Positions 10,294 through 43,142 of a DNA stretch of 64,000 nt are shown here, in pieces. The number at the start of each line of letters is the position of its first letter. Within the stretch, counting starts at the first letter, position 1. The DNA is from a virus (taxonomy: Duplodnaviria; Caudoviricetes): the IMG/VR virus record IMGVR_UViG_3300044984_000411, positions 307 to 64,306 of that record; one strand, 5' to 3'. A program made the position numbers and the translations under genes. The notes under the pieces were generated by a model. The model made no database searches and was not told where the DNA came from. It saw only the letters and a program-made list of their open reading frames with translations.

Positions 10294-13200
10294 TAAATAC
10301 ATCCTCCATAATTGTTGTTCCGTCTTTAGTTTTACCCAAAGAGAATTTGTATACGTTTCCCTCGTCAATCTTCATGTAAGCCTTGGAGAAAGCCGTAGGG
10401 AATACTGTAACGCTGTGTAGCGTCCGTGTAGCGTCTGCTAGCACTAGGGAAGCCATCTTCTTACCTGTCTTGGTAATTCGTGGCTTGAATGATACCACAA
10501 AAAGTTCGTCCTCTTTGTATGGCAGCATACGGAAGTTAAGAATCTTAATCAATCCTGTTTGGTTTGCCTTGATTTCGTCTGCTGGAATTGCTGTAACAAT
10601 CCTGTTATCGCTTGCCAGCAAGATGTAAGTACGACCTGCCTCGATAGTTGACTGCTCTTCATCGAAGATACCAACACTACCAGTCTTATCTAGAATCTCA
10701 ACTCGTGACCAACCTTTGCCACGCTTGATACCCTTGACCATGCCCATTAGAATAAACGAACCTTTTTCCTCATACTCTTCTACGTCATTGATAAATGCGT
10801 GATAGTGCTGTGGAATTGATACGTTAAACTCTGGTAGGTTTAGGTATTCGTAAAGATTCTCTTTAACTTCTTCATCATTCCTAGGATTATCATCAAAAGT
10901 TGCAGCACCAATAAGACGAAGAGCTTGCAGGGCACGGCTATTAACACCATTGCCCTTGCCAAAACTAAACTCCTCAAGTTGTTTGTAGGAGCTAAAAGGG
11001 CGAGCAGCAATATACTTAGAAGCAATGTTGTCAGAAATGTATTTGATTGCTGAAAGTCCAAAGCGGATTCCCTTTCCTTCGATTGTAAAGTCAATGTCTG
11101 AGTCGTTGATGTGTGGTAGGCGGATAGGAATACCCATACGCTTTGCTTCGATTAGGTACTCTGTGCGAGCATCCTTATCACTTTCGTTCTTAAGCAATGA
11201 ATACATAAACTCAATTGGATAGTGATACTTCAACCATGCTGTCCAGTATGATAGCGTTGAGTATGCTACAGCGTGAGACTTGTTGAATGAGTACCCTGCG
11301 TGAGCCTCAAAGTCGTGCCACAAGTCTTCTGCAACGTTTGGAGATAGGAAGCGTGAAGCACCCTCAACAAACTTGTCTTGGAACTGCTTGAACTCTTTAG
11401 CATCCTTCTTCTTACCAATAATCTTGCGAACCTTGTCAGCCTCAGCCATTGTCATACCGCCAAGTTCAGTACAGGCAAGCATAACCTGTTCCTGATACAG
11501 AATGCATCCGTAGGTCTCTTCGGTAAACTTCTTCATGTTAACGTGCTTGTAGTCTAGGTTCTGCTTACCGTGCTTACGAGCAATGTAATCTTTACCAATG
11601 GTGTTCATAGCACCTGGGCGAACTAGAGCGTTGGATGCAGCAAGTTCGTTGAAGTTTTTGACACCCATTTTAACTAGCAAGTTGGTATATGGTGTAGCTT
11701 CACACTGGAACACGCCCTTAGTAAAACCGTCAGACAGCATAGCATAAACATTCTTGTCTTCCATATCAATCTTGTGTAAGTCAATCTTATCGTTGGTACG
11801 CTCCTCAACAATCTTGAGGGTGTCTTGAATAACAGATAGGGTCTTTAGACCTAGAGCATCAATCTTGATTAGACCAATACGCTCTGCTTCTTCCATGTCT
11901 ACCGCCACCACAGGGATACGCTCCTTATTGCCAGGACTAGTGCGTGTTTCTAGTGGTGCGAACTTAAAGATAGGCTCCTTGGACGTTACAACACCTGCAG
12001 CGTGGATACCAGTACCACGAATACGACCACGCAACTGCTCGCCATACTCTTCAATCTCTGGATATTTGTCACGGAACTCTGCAGTTGACTTAGATGTCAG
12101 ATACTCGTCCCAGTCGTCTACAAGTTTAAGTACCTTGTTAACGTCAGGTAGTGGAATGTTTAGAACACGAGCCACGTCACGAACGATACCCTTGCCCTTG
12201 AATTCAAGGAATGTTGCGATGGACGCAACGTGACGGTATTGACGAACTAGGTAGTCCTTAACTTCTTCACGGCGTGAGTCTTGGATATCTGTATCAATAT
12301 CTGGGAAGTCATTACGCTCTGGGTTAATGAAACGGAAAAACAGAAGACCATGCTGGATAGGGTCAACGTCTGTGATACCAAGAGAGTAGCAAAGCAGCGA
12401 ACCTGCAGCAGAACCACGTCCTGGTCCCACCATGATATCTTCTTTCTTAGCCCAGTTAATCATATTACGAACAACTAGAAAGTAAGGTCCAAACTTCTTG
12501 TCTTTGATAACAGAAAGCTCTTCATTAAGTCTGTCCAGATATTCTTTGTTGGTGTGTAGCCCACGCTTAGTAAGACCCTCAATGGCTAGTTCATATAGCT
12601 CTTGGTCTGGGTTAACATACTGTGCTGGAAGCAAATCTAGATTATCTTGAATCTCATAGTCTTCAATCTGGTCTGCAATGTCCTTGCTGTTCTGGTACAT
12701 ATCCTCACGGTCAATACCCTGAGCAAGCATAGCGTTACGCATCTCTTCGTCAGACAGTAGGTGAATTTCGAAGTCCTTAAACGACATCTGACGGTCTGCA
12801 CCATACAGGTAGTCTAGCTTATCCATAAGGTTGTCGTACTTCTGAGTGCCAGCGAAAGTTACTTCTTTCTCAGTTTTATTAGAGTATGAGTTTAGAATAA
12901 GCTTAAGTTCTTGGATATCACGCTGTGACTTGTCTGCGTGGTGGCAGTCTGGAGTTACGACAGGCTTAATTCCAAATTCATCTGCAAGGTCAAGCAGCAT
13001 CTTATTTACTTCTGCAGGGTTGTGTGGCATTACTTCGATGTAGTAGTCGTCACCAAAAGTATCCTTAGCCCACTTGATGTGCTCCTTAGCTACCGCCAGG
13101 TTGTCTGCTTCGATAGCCTTGCACAAGAATCCTGAAAGACATCCAGAAGTAATGACTAGACCTTCTTTGTACTGCTCTAGAATGTTCCAGTCCATACGAG

Positions 13201-13561
13201 GCTTCTTAAAGAAACCCTCTGTCCAAGCAAGCTCATTAAGCTTGTTAAGGTTCTCTAGACCTACTTTGTTCTTAGCAAGAATAACAAGGTGGTTGTAGTT
13301 TAGGTTTAGTAGGTCTGTCTTGTCCTTTTCTTCGTGGTCGAAGCGGTCTTTACAGATGTACCCTTCGACTCCAAGGATTGGCTTGATACCTGCTGCTTTG
13401 GCAGCACGATACATCTCACGGTGACCAGATAGAGAACCGTGGTCTGTGATTGAGATAGAAGTCATACCCACAGATACAGCACGGTCAACGTACTCTTGTG
13501 GTGTAGCAATGCCATCAAATAGGCTGTAGTGTGTGTGAACGTGAAGTGGAGCGTAGCTCAT
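10286..13561 (-). CDS. dnaE: DNA polymerase III alpha subunit (family C)
   Basis: PHP domain HVHTHYS/TDHG, GPGRGSAAGSL, FPDIDTD catalytic motif, KIDALGL, YSFNKSH. No intein seen. Confidence 0.95.
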   Translation of the reverse strand: MSYAPLHVHTHYSLFDGIATPQEYVDRAVSVGMTSISITDHGSLSGHREMYRAAKAAGIKPILGVEGYICKDRFDHEEKDKTDLLNLNYNHLVILAKNKVGLENLNKLNELAWTEGFFKKPRMDWNILEQYKEGLVITSGCLSGFLCKAIEADNLAVAKEHIKWAKDTFGDDYYIEVMPHNPAEVNKMLLDLADEFGIKPVVTPDCHHADKSQRDIQELKLILNSYSNKTEKEVTFAGTQKYDNLMDKLDYLYGADRQMSFKDFEIHLLSDEEMRNAMLAQGIDREDMYQNSKDIADQIEDYEIQDNLDLLPAQYVNPDQELYELAIEGLTKRGLHTNKEYLDRLNEELSVIKDKKFGPYFLVVRNMINWAKKEDIMVGPGRGSAAGSLLCYSLGITDVDPIQHGLLFFRFINPERNDFPDIDTDIQDSRREEVKDYLVRQYRHVASIATFLEFKGKGIVRDVARVLNIPLPDVNKVLKLVDDWDEYLTSKSTAEFRDKYPEIEEYGEQLRGRIRGTGIHAAGVVTSKEPIFKFAPLETRTSPGNKERIPVVAVDMEEAERIGLIKIDALGLKTLSVIQDTLKIVEERTNDKIDLHKIDMEDKNVYAMLSDGFTKGVFQCEATPYTNLLVKMGVKNFNELAASNALVRPGAMNTIGKDYIARKHGKQNLDYKHVNMKKFTEETYGCILYQEQVMLACTELGGMTMAEADKVRKIIGKKKDAKEFKQFQDKFVEGASRFLSPNVAEDLWHDFEAHAGYSFNKSHAVAYSTLSYWTAWLKYHYPIEFMYSLLKNESDKDARTEYLIEAKRMGIPIRLPHINDSDIDFTIEGKGIRFGLSAIKYISDNIASKYIAARPFSSYKQLEEFSFGKGNGVNSRALQALRLIGAATFDDNPRNDEEVKENLYEYLNLPEFNVSIPQHYHAFINDVEEYEEKGSFILMGMVKGIKRGKGWSRVEILDKTGSVGIFDEEQSTIEAGRTYILLASDNRIVTAIPADEIKANQTGLIKILNFRMLPYKEDELFVVSFKPRITKTGKKMASLVLADATRTLHSVTVFPTAFSKAYMKIDEGNVYKFSLGKTKDGTTIMEDVFNV

Positions 13562-25190: not shown

Positions 25191-25861
25191 TATGCCTCTT
25201 CCAAGGTAACACTAATGTTCCAAAAGTCAAAATTAGTGCCTCCACGCTTTACAACAGAATAACTAAAGTCAGAAATAAACATCTCTACAACTTGGCTATA
25301 TTTTCCAAGGTTTGCATACTTGCCTTGTGCTACTCCTTCAAAATTTGGATATTTGTCGTAAGAAAGATATACCCAAAAAGAACCTTTATTGTTCTCATAC
25401 CAATCTAAAATTTCTGCACCGCCAGCACCGCCATCGGTTGTATATTGATAAAGGTAGTTTCCTGGTAGACTAGTTTTTTCTACACCAGAATATCCAGTAG
25501 TTGTTGGTTTTCCAGTTGTAGTATTAAAGTTTGGGTCATTAGAAAAAGAGCGTGACGGAAGCATGTCCCAAGAAACGGATATTTGTAGTTTGTCCGCAAT
25601 GTGGTATGAACGCATACGACCGTTAACAGTTCTTCTTCTGTTTTCAATTCTCTGTTGCGTAAAGTCAATTGGACCTCTGTTATCGTCTGATAAAACTAAA
25701 AAGTCTCCTGAGCCAGATGCTGCATTTACCTCATTACCTGTTGGGACATAATAGTTTTGTCCGTCATAGGCAGCTAGCGTACCTTTGTTGTCTGCCCAAA
25801 GCATAGCCTGTGGACGAGAATACCTTTTTCTACCTACTAGATAGTCTGCGTTATTTGGCAT
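25190..25861 (-). CDS. Distal tail protein-like
   Basis: Immediately after the tape measure. RRTVNGRMR...WNISVTLEEA. Confidence 0.65.
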   Translation of the reverse strand: MPNNADYLVGRKRYSRPQAMLWADNKGTLAAYDGQNYYVPTGNEVNAASGSGDFLVLSDDNRGPIDFTQQRIENRRRTVNGRMRSYHIADKLQISVSWDMLPSRSFSNDPNFNTTTGKPTTTGYSGVEKTSLPGNYLYQYTTDGGAGGAEILDWYENNKGSFWVYLSYDKYPNFEGVAQGKYANLGKYSQVVEMFISDFSYSVVKRGGTNFDFWNISVTLEEA

Positions 25862-28800
25862 TAAACTTTTGTACTCCTAATATTTTGTGAGTCTAGTCGC
25901 TTGATTTCTTTAATTACTGTTCTTGCAATATCATTTGCACTAGTATTAGAGCCATCAACGCTAATATTTACTCCATAACTATTATACACTGAACCACTGT
26001 TGTATGTACCGTTATTCATGGCTTTAAGCTTGTCAACGCCATATTCTTTAACTGCCCCAGGGTTCATAACAAATTCTTTATCGTGAAGCATAGCAAGACC
26101 GCCATTGGCGTATGGTGTGCGGAACATTCCACCAGATTTGTATTGAGGAATAAACATGGGTAATCCAGTAGGTCCGTGAACCTTATTCTTATAGAACATT
26201 TCATTTAGCTTTCCTAGAGGACTGAGCTTTGTTTGCCCTACAGGAATCTTTAGTCCAGCTTCTGCAAGTTTTTGCTGTAACAATGGAATCATTTCTGGAT
26301 TTTTGACAATAATCTTTTTAATGTCGGAGAATGGAAGTCCACCAAAAATTTGTGCTTCAACAAACTGCAAATCTGGTCTGCTCATGCCTGTTGCTGCACC
26401 AAGGATTTTTGATTGACTCATTGTCCCAAATGGTGCTGCAACTGTTTTCTTTGGTCCACCTGGAATATAAGAGTCTCTTTCTCTTGCACCAAAACTATCT
26501 CCAAGAGTAAAGGTAGAACGCTTCTTTACTCTATTCTTTAGCAGTAGCGAAATATCTCCGTATCGGTCAAAGTATTTTGAATTAATATTTGAAGCGTTAC
26601 TTCTTAAAGCCCAGCGTTCAAAAGCATTGTCATTTCTTGATGCTTTTCCTCTAATGCTCCATGGAGTATATGGGCTAACTCCTGCTCCATAGATTGGTCT
26701 AGAAGAAGGGTCAGCATCTTTTCCTAAACCAAAAAGAATCTTTTCAGCTTCTAGTCTAGGGTCTAGGTCGTCAACAACCATGCCTTCTTCAAATGCATTC
26801 CTATAGGCAAAATCTTTTTTAGCAAGTTTGTCGATAAGCTGCTCGCTTCTCATTCTTACAGAAATTGCTGGATTAGTTCTCATAAAGTTTAGATATGCTT
26901 GAGAGACTCTTGGGGTATCTATATAGTTAGCAAGCGTTACACGTGGTCCAGTATTTTTTGATGCAGAAAGACCCTTTAGTTTTGAAACACCCTTACCAGC
27001 CATACCAAGAGCCTTAATACCCATAGATGGTGCAAACATTGATGCATAGAACATTGGGTCTGTTGGGTCTACCCCCATGTTCTTGGCACCCTGGGTATAT
27101 GACTGAGCAAGCAATGACTTAGTGGCATCATTCTGCATAGCAGCAGATGGGTTGCCACCACCTAGAAGGTTTTGGATAAAGCTATTGAACCAGTCAAGAC
27201 CTGAATCGGAAGACTTCTTTGGTCCCTTGCCAACAAGTCCACCAGTTGCAAGACGTGAAATAAATGGGCTTTTATCTATTACTCCTCGCTCACCAAGTGG
27301 TGGTTTTTGAGCAGGTGGTCGAACGTTAAACCAATTTTCCATTTTAGGAAGTTTGTTTATAAGGCTTGGAACAAAGTTAACCATATCGTCTACGATTTTT
27401 GCAAACGACTTTGACATATTTGTTTTGCCAGAAATTCCTTGAACGTCTTTTAGCAACATACTCGTTAGCCATTTTTCTAGAGCTCGGTCTCCCATAGAAG
27501 CATCTTTGACAAAAGCTTCTAGTGGGTCTCCAGATTTATACAAACCTGACAGTCCTTTTAAGAAGTTATCTGGATTCATTGTTATTTTTCCAGCACCTAT
27601 GTTATCCATTATTTGTGGCAGTTCTGGTATTGTTCTGCTAGCGTCTAAAAGGAAACTCTGCAACCCTTGCTCTAACTTTAAAACATCAAAGCCTAGGTCG
27701 CCTGGGGTTGGATTTTCTAAAGGATTTTTGCTATAAAAATCATCAAGGTATGAGAACTTTGTGGGCAACTTAGAAAACTGACCACTAAGAAGGTCTGTAA
27801 AAAGCCCAGCGTGACCAAAGTCTAGCTGTGTAATTGCTTTTGAAGCAGTATCATACATAACATTCATGCCATGGATGTCAGTATTACTAAACAGTGTATT
27901 TAGTAGCGAGGTGCTGTCTGCATATTTTTGAATTGATGCTAGGTATTCCTGAATTGCTTTTTGCAGTGCTTCTGGACCACCTTGCTTGTATGCATCTAAA
28001 AATATTTTTTCCATTCGTGGAGAAGACATTAGTCCGCTAGTCCCTACCATTCCAGGTACTAGGTTTTTATTTATTTTTGATGCAACTAGTGTCGCACTAT
28101 CTTTTACCATTCCAAATGGACCAATAGTGTCTCCAGCACCCTTACCAAACTTTAGGAATTCGTATGGAACTACGTCAGAGCCAAGTTGTTGTGAAAGCCA
28201 ATAAGCAAGTGGTTCGTTAATTCCCTTATATGGCATTTGAACCGCTGTATCGCTCTTGTATGCTTTTAGGTAGTAGTCTGATTGTGTTGGAGTGTATTTA
28301 GCCATTTCGCCAATTTCTACACCCTGCCTTGTTAGTGGGCTAGAAAGACTAAAGCTATCTAGGGCTTTTAGCTTTGCTCCAGACTGAGCAGCCTTTGCCC
28401 CAGCAACTGTTCCAGTTTGCATAAAGCCCTTTGCTCCTGCACCAGCAATTTTAAGACTTTTCATTCCTGGAATAGGAACTATGTTCATTGCCATGGTTCC
28501 AGCATCTTCTAGGTCTGGTGCAGTTGGAGTTCCTTGCTTAGTCTTTACCGCCCATTTTCCAAACAGGCTTTCGTAAATACTGTTCATCACAAAGTTTAGA
28601 CCTGCACTTACTGCAGACATTGGATTATTTGGGTCAATCTCTACAGACTTATCATCAGAGTAAATGCTTGCTGTGCTTCCAGTCTTTGGCTTATTTACAA
28701 TTCCACCCTTAGCAAATTTCTCTGCATGGTTCATTTTGTCAAGGACATCTGTGCCTAGAGCGTCTACTGCCTTTGCTCTAATAACATATTCACCGTTTGA

Positions 28801-31800
28801 AAGTCTTGCAGGGATTGAATCACTTGTACCGCTACCTGGACCAGAAATATATCCACCAGCAGCCTTTTCTGTAACTGGGGTAACATATGCTCTATCTGGA
28901 ATGCCATCAGTGCCGAGGTCTTTTGCACTGGTTACCTTCCACTTTTTGCCATTCATGTCTGGGAATACAAAGCCCTTTTTTGTAGTAACGTTATATGGAT
29001 AATTTAAGAACTGGTCCATAAGATTTACTGGAAAATATTGTTTTCCCTTTTCATCTTTAAGAACTTTAAGACCCTGACCTTTTGGAACACCTGGTCTTAC
29101 TTCTGCTTCTGTAATTTCAGGAAGTGTGTAGTCAGCTTTATAGTCTTCTGGAGCTAAGTATGTGTCAATGGTAATATTTGCATTTTGAATCTGCAGAATT
29201 TGAGAATCAATGTTTTGAATTTGTTTTTGAATTCCACCAATTTTATCCTGTACAGCACCTGTCTCTTTTACTCTAGCATCTTCTAGAGCTTGCTTTTGCT
29301 GCTCTACTGCATACTGAGCGTCCTTGGCTCTGATATCTTGAACTGCTCTTGCAGCACCAAAAACATCTCCTCTTGAAAGTGCGTCTGCTAGGTCAAGTTG
29401 TGACTTCTGCTTTTCTGCAATTTGCTTTTGTAGGTCGTTGATTCTTTCAAGTGCTGTAATTCTTTCATCGTACTTGTCATTTATGTCGCCTTCCTTTTTT
29501 TCTAGCTGTTCTTGTGCATTTGTAAGTTCTTTTTGTTTTGCACTTAGGGAGGCAAGCTGTTTGTCTTTTGCTTTGAATGCTTTGTCAGCAGCTTCATTAA
29601 AAGCTTTTACATCTTTAGGGTCGTTGACTCTTAGGATATTTGCAGCTTCTTTGCTTATGCCAATTCCAGCAAGGGTAAGTTTTACAAGAAGTGCTGCACT
29701 GTCTAGATTATATAATCCCTGAGTTAGTGCAGCAATCTCTGGAGAAAGAAGTTTTAGCGACTCGTTAAGGAATTTAATCTTATCTTCTTTTGATGAAAGC
29801 GTATTTACTTTTTGAATAAACAGGTCATACTGCCTATTAAAGTCCTTTGAGCTAACTGCTGTTGATTGATATGCTGTACCCAAACCATTTAAGAAGTTTG
29901 TAACTTCTTGTAGCGATAGTTTTAGAGAATTAGCATTAAAGCCAAATGGGTCAAATTCGCTTACCTTGCTCTTGTAGTCACTAATTGCTGAAGCAATACC
30001 CTTTCTTAGTTGTTCTAGACCACCCTTTGTGTCAAGAGACAGGCTGTTTACATCAATTACCAGGTCTGTTCTTTTTGCCTCTTGCTTGATAGCGTCAATA
30101 ATAATTTGAACAACTTCTTTGTCTAGACCGCTTGCCATTAGCTCAACAGCTAGTGAGTTTAGTGCTAGAGTTATGTCTGAGCCACTACCCTCAATAATTT
30201 TTTCAACAAAGGGTTTATAGGTTTTTTGGAATTCTTCGCTAGCTCTAAACTGTTCTGCAAGAGATGCACCACCCTGAGTTTCGCCAATTCCAACTGGACC
30301 TGCCTCTCTAATGCTTGATAGTTTTGCTTCAGTTCCAAAGAAGTTATTGACAGCTTCTAGCTTGTCTTTTGTAACTAGTACTGTATCTAGCAATGCACCA
30401 GCAATTTCAGATTGCTTTCTTGCTTTTTCTGTAAGGATGTCAAATGCAATGGTTCCTCCAGTTACAACAAGACCAACTGGTCCAAGAACTCTTAGGATGC
30501 CTGGGGCAGCAACTTTAAGTGCTTTTGCAAGGTCATCTAGGTATGGTGTTATTTTTTTAGCAATAGTGCTGCCTTTAATTGCTGTTCCAATACGACCAGG
30601 AACCTTTTTCCCATCTGGACCAAGCGGTCTTTCTGGAAGCATTGACTTAGCAAATAGGGCTGTGCTTACTAGGTCCAATACATTTGCAACTTGGTTTGCT
30701 TCATCTCCACCAACCGAGCGAGCAATCATAGAGCCAATCATGCTGCCACCAAGAACTTTTCCAGAAGTTCCAGTTAAGAATTTCTTTACTCTTCCTCCAG
30801 GACTTGCAGTAGCACCAGAGCTATTGGCAATTATTGCTTTAGCTGCAGTTGCTGACAAGGCACCCCTACGACCTTGCTGGTAATAAGTTTCCTTTTGTTT
30901 TCCATTTGCATCAGTTGAAACAACTCTTCTAACTCCATTACCAAGGTCTTCGGTTGTGGTTACCTTTGGCACTGGAGTTACTTTTGACTGAGGCTCTTTA
31001 GGCTTTGCTTTAGGTTTTGCTTTAGGTTTTGCGTTTGTTGCCGCTTTTCTTGTTCTACGTTTAGTATTTTTAGTTTCAGTAACTGCTTCTTTAGACTGTG
31101 CTGCAGCTAGTGCTTCCTGGTCATTACGTGCTTGAATTTCTGCTACTGTGGCTCTTTTTGTAGCAGCCTCTAGTTTTTTTTCTTGGGTTCTATCGAAGGC
31201 TTCGTTCTTTTTCTTGTCATCTTTATATTCTCCTCTGCCAAGAAAAAATCCTCTTGGGTCGTTAGCCATAGATACTCTACGTGCAGCAACCTGTGCAACA
31301 GCTTGAGTTCTTGCAATTTCAGCGTTTGCTTTTCTACGTGCAGACTTACCCATCTTGTCTGTAACTTGAACACTGTCTTTGTGTGTTTCTGCAATTTTGC
31401 CAAGAACTGCAGTTTCTTGTGGACTTAGTGCTTCATTTCCAGCAAACAAATGTTTTGCGTGTCTTCTTACTTCTGCAACTGGAAGTTTTAGAGCTTTTGC
31501 AACTCTTTTTATATTGTCTTCTCGCAAGAAGTCTCTATAGAGAGCAACCTTTTTTCCTTTTTGCTTAGGGTCGGCTGCTTTTGTTTCCATATCTGGGTCA
31601 GAGATGTCTTGCATATACTTGTTCATAACGCCTAGTTGTGGAGTAATAAATTTAGCTGCCCAGTTTTTAAGCCATCTTGCAAATTTTCCGCCCTTTGTGT
31701 CTATCGTTACTGCACGGCTTGAGCCTTCTCCACCAATGTGTGCTGCATGAGGCTGCATATATCCGCTATAGCTTTTTCGGTCATCTTCATTTCCTATAAT

Positions 31801-34131
31801 GTCAAATCCTTGTGCTGCAAAAGCTTGTCTAACAATTTCTTGCTCGTTAGGAAAGTCTGGATGCATCAGAGCTGCAGTTTGGTTTGTAAGATGTGTTGGT
31901 TGGTCTGAACTCATCTTGCTAATTGCAGCTCCAAGTGTTACCACCTTTTTAGGGTTTTTAGGCTTTACTTCTTCTGTGCCATCGTTAAATCCTGGAATCT
32001 TTCCAGAAATCATGCCTTTTATAAAACCACGATATTTTTGTGCTGGTCCTGCAGGAATAACTGCTTCACCTGGAGAAAGCATTGCTGGAACAATGTCTCC
32101 AGCACCCTTTGGACCTGGAACGCTAAAGACACCAGCTGCATATTTCTTTGGTGCTCTAGCTTTTCCTGCTGGTGCTGGACCAGTAAAAGCTACTTGTGCA
32201 GCAATGGCTTTTTGATAAGCAGAAGCAAGCTTTCCAACAGCGGTAGCCTCTACTGTAAATGCTTGGGTTAGCTTATTGTGTACTTGCTCAAGAGATGCTG
32301 CTACTGATGCTGCCTCTAGCTGCTGCTGAGTCATGTAGTCGGTTGTCTCACCAAGAACGGTAGATGCTGAAGCAGCCTTATTAAACACATTTTTTACAAA
32401 AGTAAATCCCTTAATAATATTTGCTACACCGTTAGCAAGCAAACCAAATGTCATTAGGAATACTGGACCAATACCAGCAATTAGACCAGTAGCGTTTACA
32501 ATAAATTGCTTTACGCCACCATCAAGATTGTTGAATGCTTTTAGTACATCTGTTGCAAAATTAATGATAGGAGTTACTGCCTTGAGGAATTCTTCACCAA
32601 CTGGTGCAAGCTCTTTCTTAAAGTCAGCAACTGCTTTTTCAAATTTGTACATTGGTGATGCTGCAATTTTATTAAGCTCTCGCTGGGCAAGAATACCTAG
32701 CTCTGCAGATGATTGTCTGGTTAACTCTAGAACTCTTGCTGCCTGGCTACCGTCCTTAATTACGTTTTGAAACAGTGTAGATAGACGTGAAAACTGGAAC
32801 TTACCAAACAACTGCTCAATTGCACGAGCACGGTTTAGTGGGTCAAGGGTGTCAAGTGCTTTAGCAAAATCTGTTACAAGACCTTTTACATCGCCTTTAT
32901 TTCCTTCTACGATTCCATTGAGGTTGATGCCAAAACTTGCCATAAAGTCAGAGGCTTTTTTAGTTGGGTTAATAAGTGATGCAAGACCAGACTTTAGGGC
33001 GTTAGCACTTTCTGAAGCGTTAATGCCACCTTCACGCATAGCGGTGAGAAAGAACGTAAGGTCTTCTACATCTCCGCCAAGCTGCTGAATGACTGGTGCT
33101 GCTTTTGGAATGGCAATGGTCAAGTCTTCAATAGATGTTACAGTTTGGTTTTCAACTGCGTTTAGGAAGTTAATCTTTTTGCGTAGTTGGTCGCTAGCAG
33201 TTCCGAAAGCATTTGTAAGTGAGATTGTTGTTTCAAGTGCTTGTGCTTGTTCTACGTTACCCAATACAGATAGTCTTGTTGCTTCTGATACCTGGGCTAG
33301 TAGGTCTGCACCCATCTTGCCTGTAGCAGCAGCCTTGGCTGCTTGCTCCATTGTTTTTTCAACTGCTATGCCATATTTAGTGAATTCAGAAGCGAGCTGC
33401 TGAACTTGTTTGAGCATAGCGTCTGTTTCTTTTGTTGCTGTAAAAGTATCTCCATAAACACGCTTAAAAGCAATTGCTTGCTTTTCCATATCCATAAATG
33501 TTTTGGCAGCAGTGGTTCCCAAAATACCTAGTGGAATGGTAAAACCAACCATAAGCTGACGACCAGCCCACTGGGTGTTCTTACCAAAGTTTAGAAGGTT
33601 TGTAGAGCCTTGCTTTAGAAGCTGGTTTAGAAGCTGCTGTTTTTGTGCAGCAATTTGTGTTTTTGTTGACAGGTTTTCCATGTCAAGTGCCAGTGGTCGT
33701 ATAGCAATAGTTTTGATTGCTCCATTAGCATCACGCCCCATTTTGACGTACTGTGTTTGTAGGTCTTTAACTCTTTCAATGGCTACCTTCTGGATAGTGT
33801 CCATTTCTGTTCTAAAGAATTTTCCAAAGCTCTTAGATGCTCCACCAGCATATTTGAAGTACTGTCCCATTGACAGTTTGTTCTTTTCAAGTGCTGTAGT
33901 AAAAGTTTGTGTTGATGATGCAACAGTTTTCATTGATGCTGAATATTGACCAGTTGCATTAATTGTGTCAATTAGCGATTGCTGCATTTGTAGTGATTTT
34001 ATATTGGCTGTTGCACTACCTTTAGCCAAGGAGGTATGAAAGTCTGAAATCTGTCTTTGAAGTGTCTTAATTGCTGCTAGTGCTTGACCAGCATCAATAT
34101 TGATATCAATTTTAGACTCGAAATCAGACAT
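25861..34131 (-). CDS. Tape measure protein with inserted kinase-like and DUF3626-like domains
   Basis: 2756 aa after the tail chaperones. TP901-like core (AMREGGINASESANALKS, IEQLFGK), hydrophobic Gly/Ala segments, GPGSGTSDSIPARLSNGEYV motif, plus extra enzyme-like domains. Confidence 0.9.
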   Translation of the reverse strand: MSDFESKIDINIDAGQALAAIKTLQRQISDFHTSLAKGSATANIKSLQMQQSLIDTINATGQYSASMKTVASSTQTFTTALEKNKLSMGQYFKYAGGASKSFGKFFRTEMDTIQKVAIERVKDLQTQYVKMGRDANGAIKTIAIRPLALDMENLSTKTQIAAQKQQLLNQLLKQGSTNLLNFGKNTQWAGRQLMVGFTIPLGILGTTAAKTFMDMEKQAIAFKRVYGDTFTATKETDAMLKQVQQLASEFTKYGIAVEKTMEQAAKAAATGKMGADLLAQVSEATRLSVLGNVEQAQALETTISLTNAFGTASDQLRKKINFLNAVENQTVTSIEDLTIAIPKAAPVIQQLGGDVEDLTFFLTAMREGGINASESANALKSGLASLINPTKKASDFMASFGINLNGIVEGNKGDVKGLVTDFAKALDTLDPLNRARAIEQLFGKFQFSRLSTLFQNVIKDGSQAARVLELTRQSSAELGILAQRELNKIAASPMYKFEKAVADFKKELAPVGEEFLKAVTPIINFATDVLKAFNNLDGGVKQFIVNATGLIAGIGPVFLMTFGLLANGVANIIKGFTFVKNVFNKAASASTVLGETTDYMTQQQLEAASVAASLEQVHNKLTQAFTVEATAVGKLASAYQKAIAAQVAFTGPAPAGKARAPKKYAAGVFSVPGPKGAGDIVPAMLSPGEAVIPAGPAQKYRGFIKGMISGKIPGFNDGTEEVKPKNPKKVVTLGAAISKMSSDQPTHLTNQTAALMHPDFPNEQEIVRQAFAAQGFDIIGNEDDRKSYSGYMQPHAAHIGGEGSSRAVTIDTKGGKFARWLKNWAAKFITPQLGVMNKYMQDISDPDMETKAADPKQKGKKVALYRDFLREDNIKRVAKALKLPVAEVRRHAKHLFAGNEALSPQETAVLGKIAETHKDSVQVTDKMGKSARRKANAEIARTQAVAQVAARRVSMANDPRGFFLGRGEYKDDKKKNEAFDRTQEKKLEAATKRATVAEIQARNDQEALAAAQSKEAVTETKNTKRRTRKAATNAKPKAKPKAKPKEPQSKVTPVPKVTTTEDLGNGVRRVVSTDANGKQKETYYQQGRRGALSATAAKAIIANSSGATASPGGRVKKFLTGTSGKVLGGSMIGSMIARSVGGDEANQVANVLDLVSTALFAKSMLPERPLGPDGKKVPGRIGTAIKGSTIAKKITPYLDDLAKALKVAAPGILRVLGPVGLVVTGGTIAFDILTEKARKQSEIAGALLDTVLVTKDKLEAVNNFFGTEAKLSSIREAGPVGIGETQGGASLAEQFRASEEFQKTYKPFVEKIIEGSGSDITLALNSLAVELMASGLDKEVVQIIIDAIKQEAKRTDLVIDVNSLSLDTKGGLEQLRKGIASAISDYKSKVSEFDPFGFNANSLKLSLQEVTNFLNGLGTAYQSTAVSSKDFNRQYDLFIQKVNTLSSKEDKIKFLNESLKLLSPEIAALTQGLYNLDSAALLVKLTLAGIGISKEAANILRVNDPKDVKAFNEAADKAFKAKDKQLASLSAKQKELTNAQEQLEKKEGDINDKYDERITALERINDLQKQIAEKQKSQLDLADALSRGDVFGAARAVQDIRAKDAQYAVEQQKQALEDARVKETGAVQDKIGGIQKQIQNIDSQILQIQNANITIDTYLAPEDYKADYTLPEITEAEVRPGVPKGQGLKVLKDEKGKQYFPVNLMDQFLNYPYNVTTKKGFVFPDMNGKKWKVTSAKDLGTDGIPDRAYVTPVTEKAAGGYISGPGSGTSDSIPARLSNGEYVIRAKAVDALGTDVLDKMNHAEKFAKGGIVNKPKTGSTASIYSDDKSVEIDPNNPMSAVSAGLNFVMNSIYESLFGKWAVKTKQGTPTAPDLEDAGTMAMNIVPIPGMKSLKIAGAGAKGFMQTGTVAGAKAAQSGAKLKALDSFSLSSPLTRQGVEIGEMAKYTPTQSDYYLKAYKSDTAVQMPYKGINEPLAYWLSQQLGSDVVPYEFLKFGKGAGDTIGPFGMVKDSATLVASKINKNLVPGMVGTSGLMSSPRMEKIFLDAYKQGGPEALQKAIQEYLASIQKYADSTSLLNTLFSNTDIHGMNVMYDTASKAITQLDFGHAGLFTDLLSGQFSKLPTKFSYLDDFYSKNPLENPTPGDLGFDVLKLEQGLQSFLLDASRTIPELPQIMDNIGAGKITMNPDNFLKGLSGLYKSGDPLEAFVKDASMGDRALEKWLTSMLLKDVQGISGKTNMSKSFAKIVDDMVNFVPSLINKLPKMENWFNVRPPAQKPPLGERGVIDKSPFISRLATGGLVGKGPKKSSDSGLDWFNSFIQNLLGGGNPSAAMQNDATKSLLAQSYTQGAKNMGVDPTDPMFYASMFAPSMGIKALGMAGKGVSKLKGLSASKNTGPRVTLANYIDTPRVSQAYLNFMRTNPAISVRMRSEQLIDKLAKKDFAYRNAFEEGMVVDDLDPRLEAEKILFGLGKDADPSSRPIYGAGVSPYTPWSIRGKASRNDNAFERWALRSNASNINSKYFDRYGDISLLLKNRVKKRSTFTLGDSFGARERDSYIPGGPKKTVAAPFGTMSQSKILGAATGMSRPDLQFVEAQIFGGLPFSDIKKIIVKNPEMIPLLQQKLAEAGLKIPVGQTKLSPLGKLNEMFYKNKVHGPTGLPMFIPQYKSGGMFRTPYANGGLAMLHDKEFVMNPGAVKEYGVDKLKAMNNGTYNSGSVYNSYGVNISVDGSNTSANDIARTVIKEIKRLDSQNIRSTKV

Positions 34132-34155: not shown

Positions 34156-34473
34156 TTAGCCTCTACCGCCAAGAAACTGGTTGCCCATGGCAGTTCCAGA
34201 TGCCTCTTCAATAATGCGGTATACGGTTGGCAAGTCTAGAAGGTCTTCTAGCTTTGCTGCGTCTTCTGCAAGCTCTGGCTTGTACTGACGCATGGCGATT
34301 CTAACACATTCGATTAGAAGGTCCATTGATTTATCGTTGTCTTCTGCAACTTCTTCGATGCTTGCAAAGGTCTTCATAAACTCACGAAGAATTGAGATTT
34401 TTAGTGGTCGTACTGCAAGAACGGTTCCGTCTGGCAGAGTGATTTCATTTGGTTCGTTAATGGTTGTTGCCAT
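34156..34473 (-). CDS. Tail assembly chaperone (short paralog)
   Basis: Directly upstream of the tape measure and similar to the N-terminal half of 34522-35214. Confidence 0.7.
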   Translation of the reverse strand: MATTINEPNEITLPDGTVLAVRPLKISILREFMKTFASIEEVAEDNDKSMDLLIECVRIAMRQYKPELAEDAAKLEDLLDLPTVYRIIEEASGTAMGNQFLGGRG

Positions 34474-34521: not shown

Positions 34522-35214
34522 TTAATCCCACTTTTCATAGCCAAGACCCATGCCAATACCAAAGCCAGCCTTTTGTGCATTTTGTCCTTGTAAAGATAGA
34601 ACATCGTCTGGATTATCTGTTGCTCCACCGCTAAACACCTTAGCCTTAATTTTTTCCCATGGGTCTTGTTCTTTTTTACCAGATTGTGCGTCAAGGTCTA
34701 CTCCTTGAATTGCAGCAAAAAACTTTTTTTCATTATAGTCTGCATCTCTTTTTGCATTCAGTGTGCTCATTAGTTCTGGTAGTGATAGAGAACGCTCTAG
34801 TTCTTCGTAGTCTTTCCAAATGCCCAGCAAGAATGCCTCTGACTCTAGTGTAGCCAGGTCCATAGAATCCCATCCAGGTGGATTGTCGGATACCTGTTTT
34901 TGTGGTGTATCTTCAGTTTGCTCTTTGTTTTTTAGCTTAATCCCTGCAGACAGGTCAAGAAGTTCGTACAGGGTGTCCATGTCTAAGCTATCTGCTAGTT
35001 CTTCTGCACTTGTAATTGACGGATAGTATTGCTTCATAGCAATTGCCCCACACTCAAGTAGCATATTTACAGTATCGTCTTCTGAGACAGCATCTTTAAA
35101 GTCGCTAAACACATCCATTAAATCTCTAAGATAAAGTATCTTTAATGGTGTTATGTGTAGTCTTGTTCCGTCTGTGAGTTCTATATACCCAGATTCATAT
35201 ATTTTAGTAGCCAT
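34522..35214 (-). CDS. Tail assembly chaperone (long form)
   Basis: Lies between the major tail and tape measure genes. WKDYEELERSLSLPEL segment. Confidence 0.7.
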   Translation of the reverse strand: MATKIYESGYIELTDGTRLHITPLKILYLRDLMDVFSDFKDAVSEDDTVNMLLECGAIAMKQYYPSITSAEELADSLDMDTLYELLDLSAGIKLKNKEQTEDTPQKQVSDNPPGWDSMDLATLESEAFLLGIWKDYEELERSLSLPELMSTLNAKRDADYNEKKFFAAIQGVDLDAQSGKKEQDPWEKIKAKVFSGGATDNPDDVLSLQGQNAQKAGFGIGMGLGYEKWD

Positions 35215-35285: not shown

Positions 35286-35972
35286 TTAGAACGATTCGCT
35301 CACTGCTGTTGTGTTTGGAGACGATGTTTTGTTTCCATCTGCTAGTGTGCGGTCAACGATTCTACCGTACGATGCTGTGTTGTTTGGAAGTAGACGGAAT
35401 GAAACGTCAAACATTGTCGCTTCATCACGCTTTGCCGATACTGTAACGCTATCGATAGAGATAGCACGGTATGCAACATAGATACGCTCAATTGAGCTAC
35501 CTACTGCACAGTCACCAGTACCTGGACCAACTGCCACCAAGCCTCGTTCGATTGGACATTCTCCAAGCTCTCCTGCGGAAAGCTGTAGTGTGTCTTCTCC
35601 ACCGAGTCTAGTTGTGCCAGACGATACAAAAGCATCGGTTGATGGACGAGCTAGAGCTAGAACTAGGTTTTCTAGTGTAGCCTCTGCAAAGCTGGTATTC
35701 ATGTTAACTGTCATACCCTGCTTGTAAAGTTTTGCTACGTCAAGAACCTGGTCTACCGACACCTCACCAAAATCTGGAGCAAATGTTAGCTCTAGACCGT
35801 TGCTGGTGTAACCAACGTTACGGAAGTCCGCATCGTTTGACAGAGTTTCCTTGTAAGAAAGTGCTCCTTGTGCGTTAGGTAGGTCGTCGTAACCCATTTC
35901 GCCACCTTCGAATGCGAAGAGAGCTGCTGCACCAACGATAATGTTAGTGCTTGAACCACGTGTATATGCCAT
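35286..35972 (-). CDS. Major tail (tube) protein
   Basis: NIIVGAA...VGYTSNGLEL...FAEATLENL, at the expected position in the tail module. Confidence 0.8.
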   Translation of the reverse strand: MAYTRGSSTNIIVGAAALFAFEGGEMGYDDLPNAQGALSYKETLSNDADFRNVGYTSNGLELTFAPDFGEVSVDQVLDVAKLYKQGMTVNMNTSFAEATLENLVLALARPSTDAFVSSGTTRLGGEDTLQLSAGELGECPIERGLVAVGPGTGDCAVGSSIERIYVAYRAISIDSVTVSAKRDEATMFDVSFRLLPNNTASYGRIVDRTLADGNKTSSPNTTAVSESF

Positions 35973-39106: not shown

Positions 39107-40201
39107 TTATAGGCTTGAGTCAACAGAATCGCTGTCAACGTATGCGATAGCGTCCTGCTCTTCCCACTGAATACCGAAACGTACGAATACGGTGTACTCA
39201 ATGGTGTCCTTCTTGGCAACGTACTCACGGTTTACAGTGATGTCTCGCTGGAAACCCCAAATGCGGTTGCTTGGGAAGGTTAGGTCTACGAAGCCTTCTG
39301 GGTAGTAAGGTACTTCCATAACAGGAATACCTAGTACACGTGTAGCACGAGCCTGACCGATAACCTGGTCAGTACCTGCAAGGTAAGCGTTACGGTAGTC
39401 TTCAGTCCAGATGTTTCCAGAAAGAGTTCCGTGGTTTCTTACGATGCCCTGGAATGCTGAGGTTCCTGCGTAGAACTTCAGACCATTCTTTAGAGCACGG
39501 TACTTACGAGGTAGACGGTCTACAACTTGCTGTAGAACCTCTGGTGTAAATGCGTTGTTAGCGATAGTAGCAACGTATTCGTGTGCATAGCCATCGGTCT
39601 TGGTACGGCTTACGAAACCTTCCATAATGTTAAGGAAGTTGTTCACCCCTGTACCAGTACCGTTGATTGCTAGGTCCTCAATGTCATTCGCAAATGCGTT
39701 TGTCATTAGACGGACTAGGTGGTCTTCAAGAGCCGCACCTTCAACGTTGTCTTCTAGAGCTTCAGCTGATACTTCCCAGTCAAGACGAATCTTCTTTGTA
39801 GTAAGTTCGACCTTTGAGAATGTAGCACCAGCGTTAGTGTATGTTGCATCACCCTGGTTAGCAGCACGGATAACACGCTCACCAACGTTAACTTTTTCAA
39901 GTTCCATTGTATTAGCTCGCATTGTTACACGGCGACCGTCCTTGGCTAGGACTGTACCATCCCAGACATAATCGATAAATCTACGTGCCTGTTCAGGACG
40001 TAGGATACCGCTTGCAGCAGAACCACTAGGGGTTACAGCGTTAGGACCAGTTAGTACACCAAATTCAGCAGTTGGGACGTTTCCGAGAGTTGAAGCTCCT
40101 GGGTTAGTAACGCCACCAATGCCACCTGAAGCGAAAGCACCTTCTGAGTTTGTCTCATTGGCACCAGCTCCTGGATAGTTTTTAATAATTTCTTCCGACA
40201 T
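39107..40201 (-). CDS. Major capsid protein (HK97 fold)
   Basis: GILRPEQARRFID, KKIRLDWEVSAEALEDN, DIEDLAING. Follows the protease/scaffold gene and has an AGGAGG RBS. Confidence 0.88.
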   Translation of the reverse strand: MSEEIIKNYPGAGANETNSEGAFASGGIGGVTNPGASTLGNVPTAEFGVLTGPNAVTPSGSAASGILRPEQARRFIDYVWDGTVLAKDGRRVTMRANTMELEKVNVGERVIRAANQGDATYTNAGATFSKVELTTKKIRLDWEVSAEALEDNVEGAALEDHLVRLMTNAFANDIEDLAINGTGTGVNNFLNIMEGFVSRTKTDGYAHEYVATIANNAFTPEVLQQVVDRLPRKYRALKNGLKFYAGTSAFQGIVRNHGTLSGNIWTEDYRNAYLAGTDQVIGQARATRVLGIPVMEVPYYPEGFVDLTFPSNRIWGFQRDITVNREYVAKKDTIEYTVFVRFGIQWEEQDAIAYVDSDSVDSSL

Positions 40202-40223
40202 AATTGTCACCTCCTAGTGATTT

Positions 40224-41543: not shown

Positions 41544-43142
41544 TTATTGTACTGCTCTACCCTCACCCTGGGCGTTTCGTCCAGTGGTGGTTGCAGTGCT
41601 GTCAGACGCATTGTTTGCTCGCTCTGCGTCACGCTGTCTGTTGCCAGCGAGGTTAGCACGAGCATCTGTAGCCTGTCTAGATGTCATTTGAAAAGGCTCA
41701 TCTGCATCTGGTCTTTGTGGTAGACCAAGAATTTCACGAGCTTCGTTTGGAACCATAATCTGGGTCTTCACGTAACGCTCAAGAATCTGAGACTGTGCAA
41801 TTTCATCTGTAAGAGTCAGCTCGTTAAACTTGAGTTCAAGAATGTCTGTCTTTTCTTTTACAAGTCTGTTAATAAGCTTTTCAATGTTACGTTGTGCTGG
41901 TCTTGCTACCTGCTCCTTAAACGTACGGTCTTGTGCTAGGGCAGCTGCAATAGATGCTGCATCACCGCCACCAATCTTGGAGAGTGGAACTTGGTGAGCA
42001 ACTAAGATATCGTCACGGTTACGGACTCTGTATTCATTAAATGATGCCTCCTGTACGCCATTTTCAATCGGTTCCATTTTAAACTCAACCTTATTAGTGT
42101 CTGAGTCTCCTGGAAGTGGGATGTAAAGAGTTCTGTGCGACTGCCCCTTTAGGCTAGTCTGCAAGAACCTAAACATCTTGTCTTCTGCATCTGACGATAG
42201 CTTTGCACCTTTTAGCGTTACAACATAGCGTGGCACAGCCTTGTTGCCAAAGTAGTCGATGTTATATTGCGATGCTAGCTGGTCTCCCTGCAATGCTGTA
42301 ATTGCTGAGATAATGTCTGGCACACCATAGTAAGTGTTTAGTGGTGAGTATTCTTTAAAGTGAATAATCTCGTTTGGTCTCTGGTCAGAGGTGATTGGAT
42401 TTGGATTCTTTGCACCAAAGTTGCGGAAGTAAACAACCTTTTCTCCAATAATCTGAACGTATCCATCCTTTAGTCTGCGTACACGCATTGTGGTTGTAGG
42501 GATGTGACCAACATAACCAATCTCTCCAGTAACAGTTCTACCAATTTCCATGTAGCCATTACCAGTTGCCTGAAGGTCTGTGTAAATTTTCATCATTGTG
42601 TGTGTAAACGAGTCTTCGTCGTTCATACTTTCTAGCCAGTCTTTTAGCTCTACCTTGGCACGTTCTACTCTGCTACGTGCTCTTTTAACTGCTGCCTGGT
42701 CTTCCATACCTTCTAGACGCATTGCAGTTCTATCTGTAACGTGGAAGTCATAGCCAAGACCAACAATGTTTTCTACCTTAGCATCGATGGCAGCGTGGTT
42801 AGCAAATGAGGTGTCATAGTAATTGGCAAGTTCATATAGATTCCATGGTGGAGTAATTACATCAAACAGACCATAACCATTCTTAAACACCTTGCCAGGA
42901 TTTAGCTCTTTTGACTTTGCCCCACCAATACCTGCACTAACAGCCATAGCACTGTCAAGATATGCCTCGCTGTTTACATCTGCCTTAGATAGCTGACGTG
43001 TAGAACGTCTCTTAAAGTTTAGGTCAAGACCGTTTAGACCTTTTAGGTCGTCCCACGATTTTACAAATGGGTCTTGCTTTTTAAACAGGTCTTCTTCTGC
43101 ATCAAATTCTGGCAGAGAAGCACCAATAATATATTCTTCCAT
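41544..43142 (-). CDS. Portal protein
   Basis: TGNGYMEI, EIIHFK..SP...YYGVP, YFGNKAVP, PNEAREILGLP. Confidence 0.9.
   Translation of the reverse strand: MEEYIIGASLPEFDAEEDLFKKQDPFVKSWDDLKGLNGLDLNFKRRSTRQLSKADVNSEAYLDSAMAVSAGIGGAKSKELNPGKVFKNGYGLFDVITPPWNLYELANYYDTSFANHAAIDAKVENIVGLGYDFHVTDRTAMRLEGMEDQAAVKRARSRVERAKVELKDWLESMNDEDSFTHTMMKIYTDLQATGNGYMEIGRTVTGEIGYVGHIPTTTMRVRRLKDGYVQIIGEKVVYFRNFGAKNPNPITSDQRPNEIIHFKEYSPLNTYYGVPDIISAITALQGDQLASQYNIDYFGNKAVPRYVVTLKGAKLSSDAEDKMFRFLQTSLKGQSHRTLYIPLPGDSDTNKVEFKMEPIENGVQEASFNEYRVRNRDDILVAHQVPLSKIGGGDAASIAAALAQDRTFKEQVARPAQRNIEKLINRLVKEKTDILELKFNELTLTDEIAQSQILERYVKTQIMVPNEAREILGLPQRPDADEPFQMTSRQATDARANLAGNRQRDAERANNASDSTATTTGRNAQGEGRAVQ

Follow-up and report, generated by a model that had tools for sequence, protein, structure and literature searches.

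The stretch of DNA analysed here (the window, 64,000 nucleotides, positions 307 to 64,306 of the IMG/VR virus record IMGVR_UViG_3300044984_000411, which has 64,306 bases and is estimated to be about 60% complete) belongs to a virus of the Caudoviricetes and carries on its minus strand one uninterrupted open reading frame (ORF) of 2756 amino acids (aa). This ORF is the tape measure protein (TMP) of the virus, of the PF10145 or TP901 type, both by its domain and by the position of its gene: Pfam places PhageMin_Tail (PF10145) at TMP aa 249–443 (E 2.4e-24, 86.8 bits against a cut-off of 33.2), tape-measure PHROGs match aa 14–1086 (best 2e-99), and the gene stands between the tail chaperone genes and the distal or minor tail genes in a normal siphovirus structural module. 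The same polypeptide contains, at about aa 1915–2312, a kinase-like module, and this module is our subject. An original prediction, made from the letters alone, had placed a HipA/PI3-4-kinase-like domain inside the tape measure, and the placement was right, with PF10145 and the TMP PHROGs on the very ORF that holds the kinase motifs. We consider it very probable that the module is a homologue with a kinase fold.

The four motif strings of the module (Table 1) lie on the minus strand in one frame, in the order and at the places first reported, and all of them fall within the TMP ORF. Read as a kinase, they would provide an ATP-anchoring Lys, a helix-C Glu, a catalytic loop and a metal-binding D-F-G, with a spacing of 14 from N2090 to D2104. 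The six-frame translation (127,996 residues) contains a single match to the pattern N.D.H..N.{8,20}D[FH]G, 200 residue shuffles contain none, and the shorter expression D.H..N.{8,20}D[FH]G gives a mean of 0.01 matches per residue shuffle. The span initially proposed, 27350–28350, covered the core, and the module is wider by homology: its left edge is set near aa 1915 because the otherwise collinear relative L008 stops matching there, and its right edge at aa 2312 because the match to P0005 ends there. Just before the module, there is an in-frame ATG at TMP codon 1904 (28420–28422, minus strand), with an AGGAG ending 11 nt upstream.

Table 1. Features of the window, with TMP residue numbers where they apply. 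A1 is the five-sequence module alignment and A4 the alignment of these five with 30 HipA_2 proteins; subjects are the 88 relatives on which the window TMP was mapped.
Feature	TMP residues	Window position	Strand	Evidence or occurrence
TMP gene, one uninterrupted ORF	1–2756	25861..34131	-	PF10145, TMP PHROGs, gene position
Kinase-like module	~1915–2312	~27196–28389	-	blastp map, alignments, hhalign, AF2, fold search, dN/dS
String YYLKAYK	1953–1959	28255–28275	-	
String INEPLAYWLSQQLG	1971–1984	28180–28221	-	
String FSNTDIHGMNVMYD	2081–2094	27850–27891	-	
String ITQLDFGHAGLF	2100–2111	27799–27834	-	
Candidate ATP-anchoring Lys (YYLK), beta3	K1956	28264..28266	-	invariant column K32 in A4 (35 sequences)
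Candidate helix-C Glu (INEPLAYW)	E1973	28213..28215	-	invariant E74 in A1; at least 90% as E49 in A4
Catalytic loop, putative	N2083-T-D2085-I-H2087-G-M-N2090	27862..27885	-	N159, D161, N166 invariant in A4; H188 in A1
Candidate metal-binding motif	D2104-F-G	27814..27822	-	D180 invariant in A4; D205, F206, G207 in A1
Conserved TMP N-terminal region	1–700	32032..34131	-	blastp map, common to 87–88/88 related TMPs (subjects)
Second hydrophobic segment	1205–1233	30433..30519	-	Kyte-Doolittle, window 19, score at least 1.5
Coiled-coil stretch	1550–1650			68–74/88 subjects
Region of the kinase-like module	1900–2300			P0005 and P0007 alone, at most 2 per 50-aa bin
C-terminal region	2650–2756			50–64/88 subjects
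Separate downstream module	~2414–2697	26041..26892	-	blastp map
Junction motif D-x-I-P-A-x-L-S-x-G-E-x-V-I, first copy	679–692	32056–32097	-	regex scan
Junction motif, internal copy	1771–1784	28777..28818	-	regex scan
Two neighbouring genes directly upstream of TMP		34156–34473 and 34522–35214	-	phrog_10504 at both N-termini
Immunoglobulin (Ig)-like major tail protein gene		35286–35972		structural module
Capsid gene		39107–40210		structural module
Portal gene		41544–43142		structural module
DnaE-type DNA polymerase III alpha gene		10286–13561	-	
Class II (B12) ribonucleotide reductase gene		47033–49051	-	
Gene of 986-aa protein with Mtd_N domain		49117–52077	-	
Gene of 806-aa collagen-repeat protein		54991–57411	-	
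Gene of PA14-domain protein		876–3296	-	

The module is known from six sequences in three deep lineages, every one of them in a giant TMP. A word-index protein search with TMP residues 1920–2280 returned P0002 and P0003, close relatives with 87% identity each; the two 87% relatives, of 2771 aa and 2872 aa, have the same architecture with the module fused in frame, and the 2771-aa frame is open in locus L002 too. Two distant TMPs, one of 3122 aa and the other of 3698 aa (P0007), likewise carry the module fused in frame. Against 1.84 billion representatives, phmmer matched the module in five proteins, namely an 87% relative, the TMPs of 3122 and 3698 aa, a 643-aa fragment and the repeat protein P0004, which was judged spurious and rejected as a member of the family. 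Pattern scans (module alone, A1), which require the exact motif patterns and can miss members, found one 87% relative (L002/L003, a single contig) and L004 in IMG/VR, one locus, on the contig of L004, in metagenome contigs, and no module locus in 185,579 species genomes. Profile searches with A1 at other lengths returned only P0006 and a 1052-aa fragment 100% identical to the window TMP; the longer of these searches spanned 703–2005 aa, and giant TMPs could not appear in it because the range ended at 2005 aa. No match was obtained by tblastn of the module against the phage GenBank collection, and megablast of 20 kb produced just matches of 50–60 bases in the TMP genes of Streptomyces and Rhodococcus phages.

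Conservation within this small family falls on the residues that a kinase would need. The other four sequences of A1 are 86, 30, 21 and 22% identical to that of the window, and the alignment has 25 invariant columns, 10 of them between positions 178 and 207, from the catalytic loop to the DFG (L, N, N-x-D-x-H-x-x-N, D and D-F-G), and another invariant residue is the helix-C Glu; K1956, E1973, N2083, D2085, H2087, N2090 and D2104-F-G are all retained in homologues at 21–30% identity. The module is under purifying selection, with a ratio of nonsynonymous to synonymous substitution rates (dN/dS) against the 87% relative of 0.159 in the module as a whole and 0.114 in the core, next to 0.182 for the whole TMP and 0.071 for the N-terminal 700 aa. 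The full catalytic set is kept, with K1956, E1973, D2085 as the putative base, N2090 as metal ligand and D2104 of the DFG, and we predict, with somewhat better than even odds, that the module is catalytically active.

Profile-profile comparison with hhalign connects A1 to HipA_C and, with a signal that is significant against the controls but of moderate probability, to HipA_2. Against our HipA_2 reference set (30 proteins from 301 genomes), the probability was 61.5–65.5% (E 5.9e-5 to 7.8e-5, 172–182 columns), with A1 and HipA_2 respectively paired as YYLK/YVLK, NEPLAYWLSQQLG/AELIGG.LAR.LG, NTDIHGMN/NVDRTxxN and LDFG/IDHG; the observed score of 41.4 stands against a maximum of 19.4 in 40 column shuffles (mean 14.0, standard deviation (sd) 1.9), the reversed alignment gave 0.4%, and the HipA_2 controls gave at most 0.6%. 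Against 25 HipA_C sequences, the probability was 83.3% (E 8.7e-6, score 49.2, 113 columns), with a maximum of 16.7 in 25 shuffles and 0.2% for the reversed alignment, and the positive control of HipA_2 against HipA_C gave 95.5%. The HipA_C set had been drawn as 30 loci from 151 genomes, from which L135, L141 and L153 were removed by a length and overlap filter and L127 and L142 as antisense ORFs. A first HipA_C value of 99.6% was an artefact and was set aside, given that column shuffles and the reversed alignment also reached about 99%; shuffled queries did so because those two antisense ORFs, from high-GC HipA loci, were in the set. In A4, a MAFFT alignment of 35 sequences, the sole invariant columns are K1956, N2083, D2085, N2090 and D2104, with G, Y, E1973 and P conserved at 90% or more, and the Lys, helix-C Glu, catalytic-loop and DFG roles assigned in the original prediction coincide with conserved columns shared with the 30 HipA_2 proteins. 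We take the predicted kinase core of the module to be homologous, at the level of profiles, to HipA_C.

Curated families were searched with hidden Markov models (HMMs). The isolated piece at aa 1900–2300 has PI3_PI4_kinase (PF00454) as its best Pfam match (13.1 bits, E 0.09, cut-off 27.1, from loop to DFG), and the same family scores 13.5 bits, below the 27.1 cut-off, in the six-frame search of the record and 21.5 bits, again below cut-off, in the whole protein P0005. Taken member by member, the five sequences of A1 match PI3_PI4_kinase in every case (5/5, best E 4.8e-4), APH and Choline_kinase in two each, and ABC1 and HipA_C in one each, all of these being kinase-fold families and sub-threshold, besides the non-kinase families Cyclase in two and MRP-S26 and DUF6645 in one each. 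Set beside the PF00454 consensus of D-R-H-x-x-N and DFG, the module has D-I-H-G-M-N, which lacks the Arg, and DFG, a partial agreement. No PHROGs family covers TMP aa 1925–2260, NCBIfam returned nothing meaningful on the module, and Pfam on the whole TMP at E≤1 gave PF10145 and a weak domain of unknown function (DUF), with no HipA N-terminal domain. The A1 profile run against PDB sequences drew mostly protein kinases over the loop–DFG stretch at non-significant values (E 0.17–2.8), outranked by two myosin light chains on an unrelated C-terminal stretch. In the profile check that accompanied the original prediction, each of HipA_C, HipA_2 and PI3_PI4_kinase stayed below its own cut-off; what is supported of the proposed HipA/PI3-4-kinase identity is a kinship of kinase fold, seen in hhalign, in the ESM Atlas and in fold matches. 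Because it fails these three HMM tests, we assign the module to a family of its own, a new one, among proteins of kinase-like fold, and it is well supported, as far as sequence comparison can tell, that TMP aa ~1915–2312 represent a new and very divergent family near the HipA, HipA_2 and type II PI4K/CtkA-type atypical kinases.

Among 30 named ESM Atlas clusters neighbouring aa 1925–2260, the HipA_2 set accounts for 16, PI3_PI4_kinase for four, LepB_N for two and the HipA family for one, at scores of 0.92–0.96, the untrimmed query being weaker at 0.87–0.90. The AlphaFold2 (AF2) model built on A4 reached a predicted local distance difference test (pLDDT) of 57.7 and a predicted TM-score (pTM) of 0.59, with block means of 70–84 over helix C, the catalytic loop and the DFG; it shows the strands of an N-lobe, a helix C and, about the loop and DFG, a pair of short strands, and mainly indicates that the sequence can be threaded on the HipA_2 fold, which is not independent proof. 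With this model, Foldseek found at least 100 PDB matches at E≤1e-3, with kinases only among the matches listed. VIA-align against 48,161 chains ranked PI4KII-alpha first at Z 12.0 (229 aligned, root-mean-square deviation 5.2) and again at Z 11.7, followed by CtkA (11.0), BRAF (10.6), Rio1 (10.4), actin-fragmin kinase (10.1) and, lower, the MavQ lipid kinase (8.4); in its best 50 rows, kinase or pseudokinase folds occur throughout, the pseudokinases IRAK3, MLKL and ULK4 among them. The kinase fold that had been anticipated is indeed predicted, by the AF2 model (pLDDT 57.7) from the HipA_2-seeded alignment and by fold matches that are all kinases among those listed. Taken together with the weak HMM matches, the profile-profile links and the language-model (ESM Atlas) neighbours, which agree with it, a bilobal kinase-like fold of the module is well supported.

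Compared with the known families, the module resembles HipA and HipA_C in its D-x-H-x-x-N loop with the His, in the N-E-x-L...L-G motif of helix C and in the Lys of a Y-x-x-K strand, but it has a DFG where HipA has a lone Asp motif, and the Lys of the HipA_C loop D-x-H-x-K-N, with which its own loop aligns, is absent. It also differs from HipA in having neither the N-terminal domain nor any apparent antitoxin-like (HipB-type) partner, its neighbours being tail genes: HipA_C proteins are the toxin kinases of bacterial toxin–antitoxin (TA) systems, whereas the module is embedded in a virion protein and forms no two-gene TA module. The small stand-alone HipA-like kinases of HipA_2 are of similar size (~265 aa vs. 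~330 aa), are placed by hhalign, at moderate probability, in register with it at K, E, N-x-D...N and D-[FH]-G, and are the commonest named ESM Atlas neighbour (16/30); the differences are the loop, N-T-D-I-H-G-M-N in the module vs. N-V-D-R-T-x-x-N-x-N, the DFG vs. DHG, and an extra insert of the module between helix C and the hinge. The likeness to the group of type II PI 4-kinase (PI4KII-alpha), Helicobacter CtkA and actin-fragmin kinase (Z 12.0, 11.7, 11.0 and 10.1, with 207–229 residues aligned) comes from a seeded model of moderate confidence, and the identity is 11–15%; the module is neither a eukaryotic lipid kinase nor a secreted bacterial effector, being part of a phage tail protein.

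The tape measure that carries the module is a mosaic. The TMP family is defined by the N-terminal 700 aa, and IMG/VR holds at least 506 relatives; 80 loci were retained from these and eight more added from contigs of metagenome-assembled genomes (MAGs). The window TMP was mapped by blastp on 88 subjects (86 loci, L007–L092, with P0005 and P0007), with the occurrences given in Table 1. L008 is collinear with the window TMP up to aa 1915 and divergent beyond, and the distance of the kinase-like module to the C-terminus differs in P0005 and P0007. Run against the ORFs of 88 related TMP loci, 69 of them with the TMP ORF complete, an HMM of A1 had no match at E≤10, and the module, being missing there, is therefore dispensable for TMP function. 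The separate downstream module at aa 2414–2697 recurs in some 10 relatives, for the most part at aa ~730–1070 of those TMPs (L015–L020, L043, L063 and L074) and at aa 2757–3044 of L023, so that modules evidently move within the TMP scaffold; it matches DUF3626 weakly (E 0.0069) and phrog_8314, and is functionally unassigned. That weak DUF3626 was all that Pfam gave on the flanks at aa 700–1150, 1810–1930 and 2290–2670, and PDB sequences gave no match for aa 2290–2670.

Pfam, run on 27 of the 52 non-redundant variable regions of the related TMPs (alignment A5), identified a HAD class B acid phosphatase in two (best E 2.5e-16), glycine zippers in four, and LysM, CW_7, HAD_PNKP and GNAT in one each, most of the sequence being without a Pfam family. 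The kinase-like module is, by these comparisons, a rare mobile cassette, one of several exchangeable modules in the variable C-terminal half of the TMP. A junction motif, D-x-[IV]-P-A-x-L-S-x-G-E-x-V in the 88 relatives scanned, typically stands near aa 680 and again about 80 aa from the C-terminus, is preceded by G-G...G-P-G and recurs in zero to two extra internal copies; the window TMP has the two copies of Table 1, the internal one surrounded by PHROG TMP matches at aa 1753–1817, and a degenerate copy near its C-terminus. The motif could be a processing or docking site. In P0007, an H-E-N-A-H string (the HExxH zinc-protease pattern) was noticed by eye a few hundred residues upstream of the kinase-like module, and Pfam has no protease family at that site. 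The TMP relatives L087–L094 are in MAG bins labelled Bifidobacterium, Flavobacterium, Acidimicrobiaceae, Methylococcus, Chitinophagia and Flavipsychrobacter, a spread that tells little about the host because viral contigs were probably swept into the bins.

The best overall explanation, to which we give a probability of roughly 0.55, is that the module is a TMP-borne kinase that would be delivered, refold and phosphorylate a host target at entry. In the general picture of siphovirus infection, the TMP fills the tail lumen in an extended form and exits first, with its distal C-terminal end ahead and its hydrophobic parts entering the membrane. The window TMP would accordingly be expected to be stored extended in the tail lumen and to leave the tail at infection C-terminal end first; its hydrophobic segments would insert in the membrane, and its C-terminal modules would arrive in the cytoplasm, where the kinase-like module would refold and spend host ATP on phosphorylating a host target before any phage gene expression. 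The first hydrophobic segment in a hydropathy scan is aa 543–572, inside the N-terminal region, and the kinase-like module is C-terminal to both this and the second one; on the ejection picture just given, modules so placed are therefore the likeliest to reach the cytoplasm, the compartment in which alone a kinase would work, since it needs ATP. That the module acts in the newly infected cell is, taken by itself, a tentative part of the proposal, which we put somewhat below even odds. The likeness of the module to HipA and CtkA makes a protein the substrate class that we favour for its target, and a lipid or small molecule is kept open because it resembles PI4KII, LepB and APH as well; to name defence or translation proteins as the targets, as was originally done, is speculation.

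Several points weigh against this delivered-kinase explanation, beginning with the identification itself. No curated family HMM attains its cut-off on the module: HipA_C (PF07804) matches one of the five members at E 0.062, below its 30.5-bit cut-off, with the window copy not listed, and with HipA_2 (PF20613, cut-off 27 bits) a six-frame search of the record stayed empty at E≤10, as did 0/5 members match. The hhalign probabilities are moderate (62–83%), from a query profile of just five sequences with an effective number of sequences (Neff) of 2.0, and when PDB sequences were searched by phmmer with the module, nothing but spurious MS2 coat matches appeared, at E 0.04 or above. On the family's own five-sequence alignment, AF2 returned a mostly helical and unusable model (pLDDT 35.1), the kinase fold of the A4 model is partly built in because 30 of its 35 rows are HipA_2, and the Foldseek TM-scores are low (0.24–0.35). 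As to function, the module is very rare and is absent from 88/88 related TMP loci, some of its sister modules (LysM, CW_7 and class B acid phosphatase) suggest action in the cell envelope, and the ATP that a kinase needs is absent outside the cytoplasm. A folded domain of ~40 kDa is also unlikely to fit the lumen of a siphovirus tail and, being too big, would have to be stored unfolded and refold later.

The rival that survives best, although we consider it unlikely, is that the kinase is active in the virion-producing cell, on phage or host proteins or on the TMP itself, during the late synthesis of the TMP when chaperones would keep it in an ATP-rich cytoplasm, and is afterwards a passenger in the tail. 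The producing cell is the sole compartment where the module would surely be folded beside ATP, two chaperone-like phrog_10504 genes adjoin the TMP gene, and the catalytic residues and the purifying selection fit action there as well as they fit delivery. However, a TMP, produced late and sparingly, is an odd vehicle for a late enzyme, and the module resembles the other exchangeable C-terminal cargo, of which LysM and CW_7 make sense only at entry.

Delivery at entry would also be compatible with another chemistry, the module being a lipid or small-molecule kinase of the PI4K, LepB, MavQ or APH/choline-kinase kind that modifies a membrane lipid, a metabolite or a signal at the entry site, which we regard as quite unlikely. 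The best Pfam family in all five members is PI3_PI4_kinase, with APH and Choline_kinase in 2/5 each, PI4KII-alpha at Z 12.0 is the top fold match and MavQ reaches Z 8.4, LepB_N is found among the Atlas neighbours, and a membrane-inserted TMP would put the module at the inner leaflet. These signs are offset by the strongest profile-profile link, which is to HipA_C at 83%, and by CtkA, within 1 Z-unit of PI4KII-alpha, HipA and CtkA both being protein kinases; moreover, all the Pfam matches are sub-threshold.

An improbable third alternative does without phosphotransfer and takes the module as a pseudokinase, or as a nucleotide- or ligand-binding or structural module, for example a plug or adaptor in the tail tip or envelope. 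It would agree with the lack of ATP in the envelope, with sister modules that look envelope-directed, with IRAK3, MLKL and ULK4 among the fold matches and with a module that is dispensable and absent in 88 relatives. A pseudokinase has usually lost the Lys, the catalytic Asp or the DFG Asp, or more than one of them, whereas here K, E, D, N and D, together with H and F-G, are invariant at 21–30% identity, and the core has a dN/dS of 0.114. Very improbable is an internal start at M1904 that would yield a free cytoplasmic protein running to the C-terminus, with no need of the virion for the kinase: the ATG at codon 1904 does have its AGGAG 11 nt upstream, as similar motifs occur at many window genes, but the spacing is long, it is a single short match within coding sequence, and the left homology edge (~aa 1915–1931) does not require M1904. 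Hardly credible, finally, is that short motifs of an ordinary helical TMP segment look like those of a kinase by chance, a reading which the sub-threshold curated HMMs and the mostly helical, unconfident first AF2 model might suggest, against a composite motif expected 0.01 times per shuffle and kept in distant homologues, hhalign scores 14–19 sd above shuffles and kinase neighbours in three independent kinds of search.

Tape measure proteins are known to carry cell-wall-degrading motifs, and those that bear enzymes include T5 pb2 with its peptidase domain and mycobacteriophage TM4 with its Rpf-like motif; to our knowledge, the enzyme domains described in TMPs have peptidoglycan as their substrate and do not work in the cytoplasm. 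What the window TMP shares with them is an exchangeable functional domain on a TMP scaffold, one that would be ejected with the tail contents. Enzymes pre-made and delivered by the virion are known too, in T4 Alt and the N4 RNA polymerase. The T4 Alt ADP-ribosyltransferase is packaged in the head and injected, and the T7 gp0.7 kinase is made early, after entry; the likeness to both lies in the proposed role, a covalent modification of host targets at the start of infection, and Alt is a precedent for a pre-made virion-delivered enzyme but is head-borne, not TMP-borne. Searches of the open-access full text of PMC and bioRxiv turned up no TMP reported to contain a kinase domain, and where kinases were mentioned in the passages checked, the context was unrelated to TMPs. 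Cargo-bearing TMPs and virion-delivered enzymes are known already, and it is the kinase-fold cargo in a TMP that would be new. Sle1, a modular effector of a contractile injection system (CIS) that is related to TMPs, is described as carrying functional domains of diverse structure and function on a TMP-like platform (PMC13277306), the difference being that Sle1 belongs to such a system and the window TMP to a phage.

If the kinase in the TMP is active, a portion of the TMP would have to pass the inner membrane and fold again into a working enzyme, and the finding is of interest because it would make the entry of the TMP into the cytoplasm directly testable, the module serving as a built-in biochemical reporter of TMP penetration in siphovirus DNA delivery. 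If true, the delivered-kinase explanation would place next to T4 Alt and the N4 RNA polymerase a further type of enzyme that is made in advance, brought in by the virion and directed at the host. The module also extends the HipA/PI4K-like kinases by a new and very divergent branch, and the mosaic TMP family is itself a natural collection of cargo modules, the majority of which Pfam does not recognize. A bolder generalization, which we think rather doubtful, is that the TMPs of this family constitute a protein-injection platform, in which interchangeable enzyme cassettes (the kinase here, HAD phosphatases, GNAT and others in relatives) would pass unfolded down the tail in front of the DNA, refold in the host cytoplasm and rewire or disarm the cell in advance of all phage transcription, as a phage counterpart of polymorphic toxin and CIS effector systems.

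Around the TMP gene, the two upstream genes with phrog_10504 at their N-termini may have arisen by duplication of a chaperone gene or may form a G/GT-type pair, and downstream of it are the genes of a 223-aa protein and a 1579-aa minor tail protein. Elsewhere in the window are genes for a DNA polymerase, a ribonucleotide reductase and the Mtd_N-domain, collagen-repeat and PA14-domain proteins (Table 1), and Shine-Dalgarno-like motifs precede many of the window genes.

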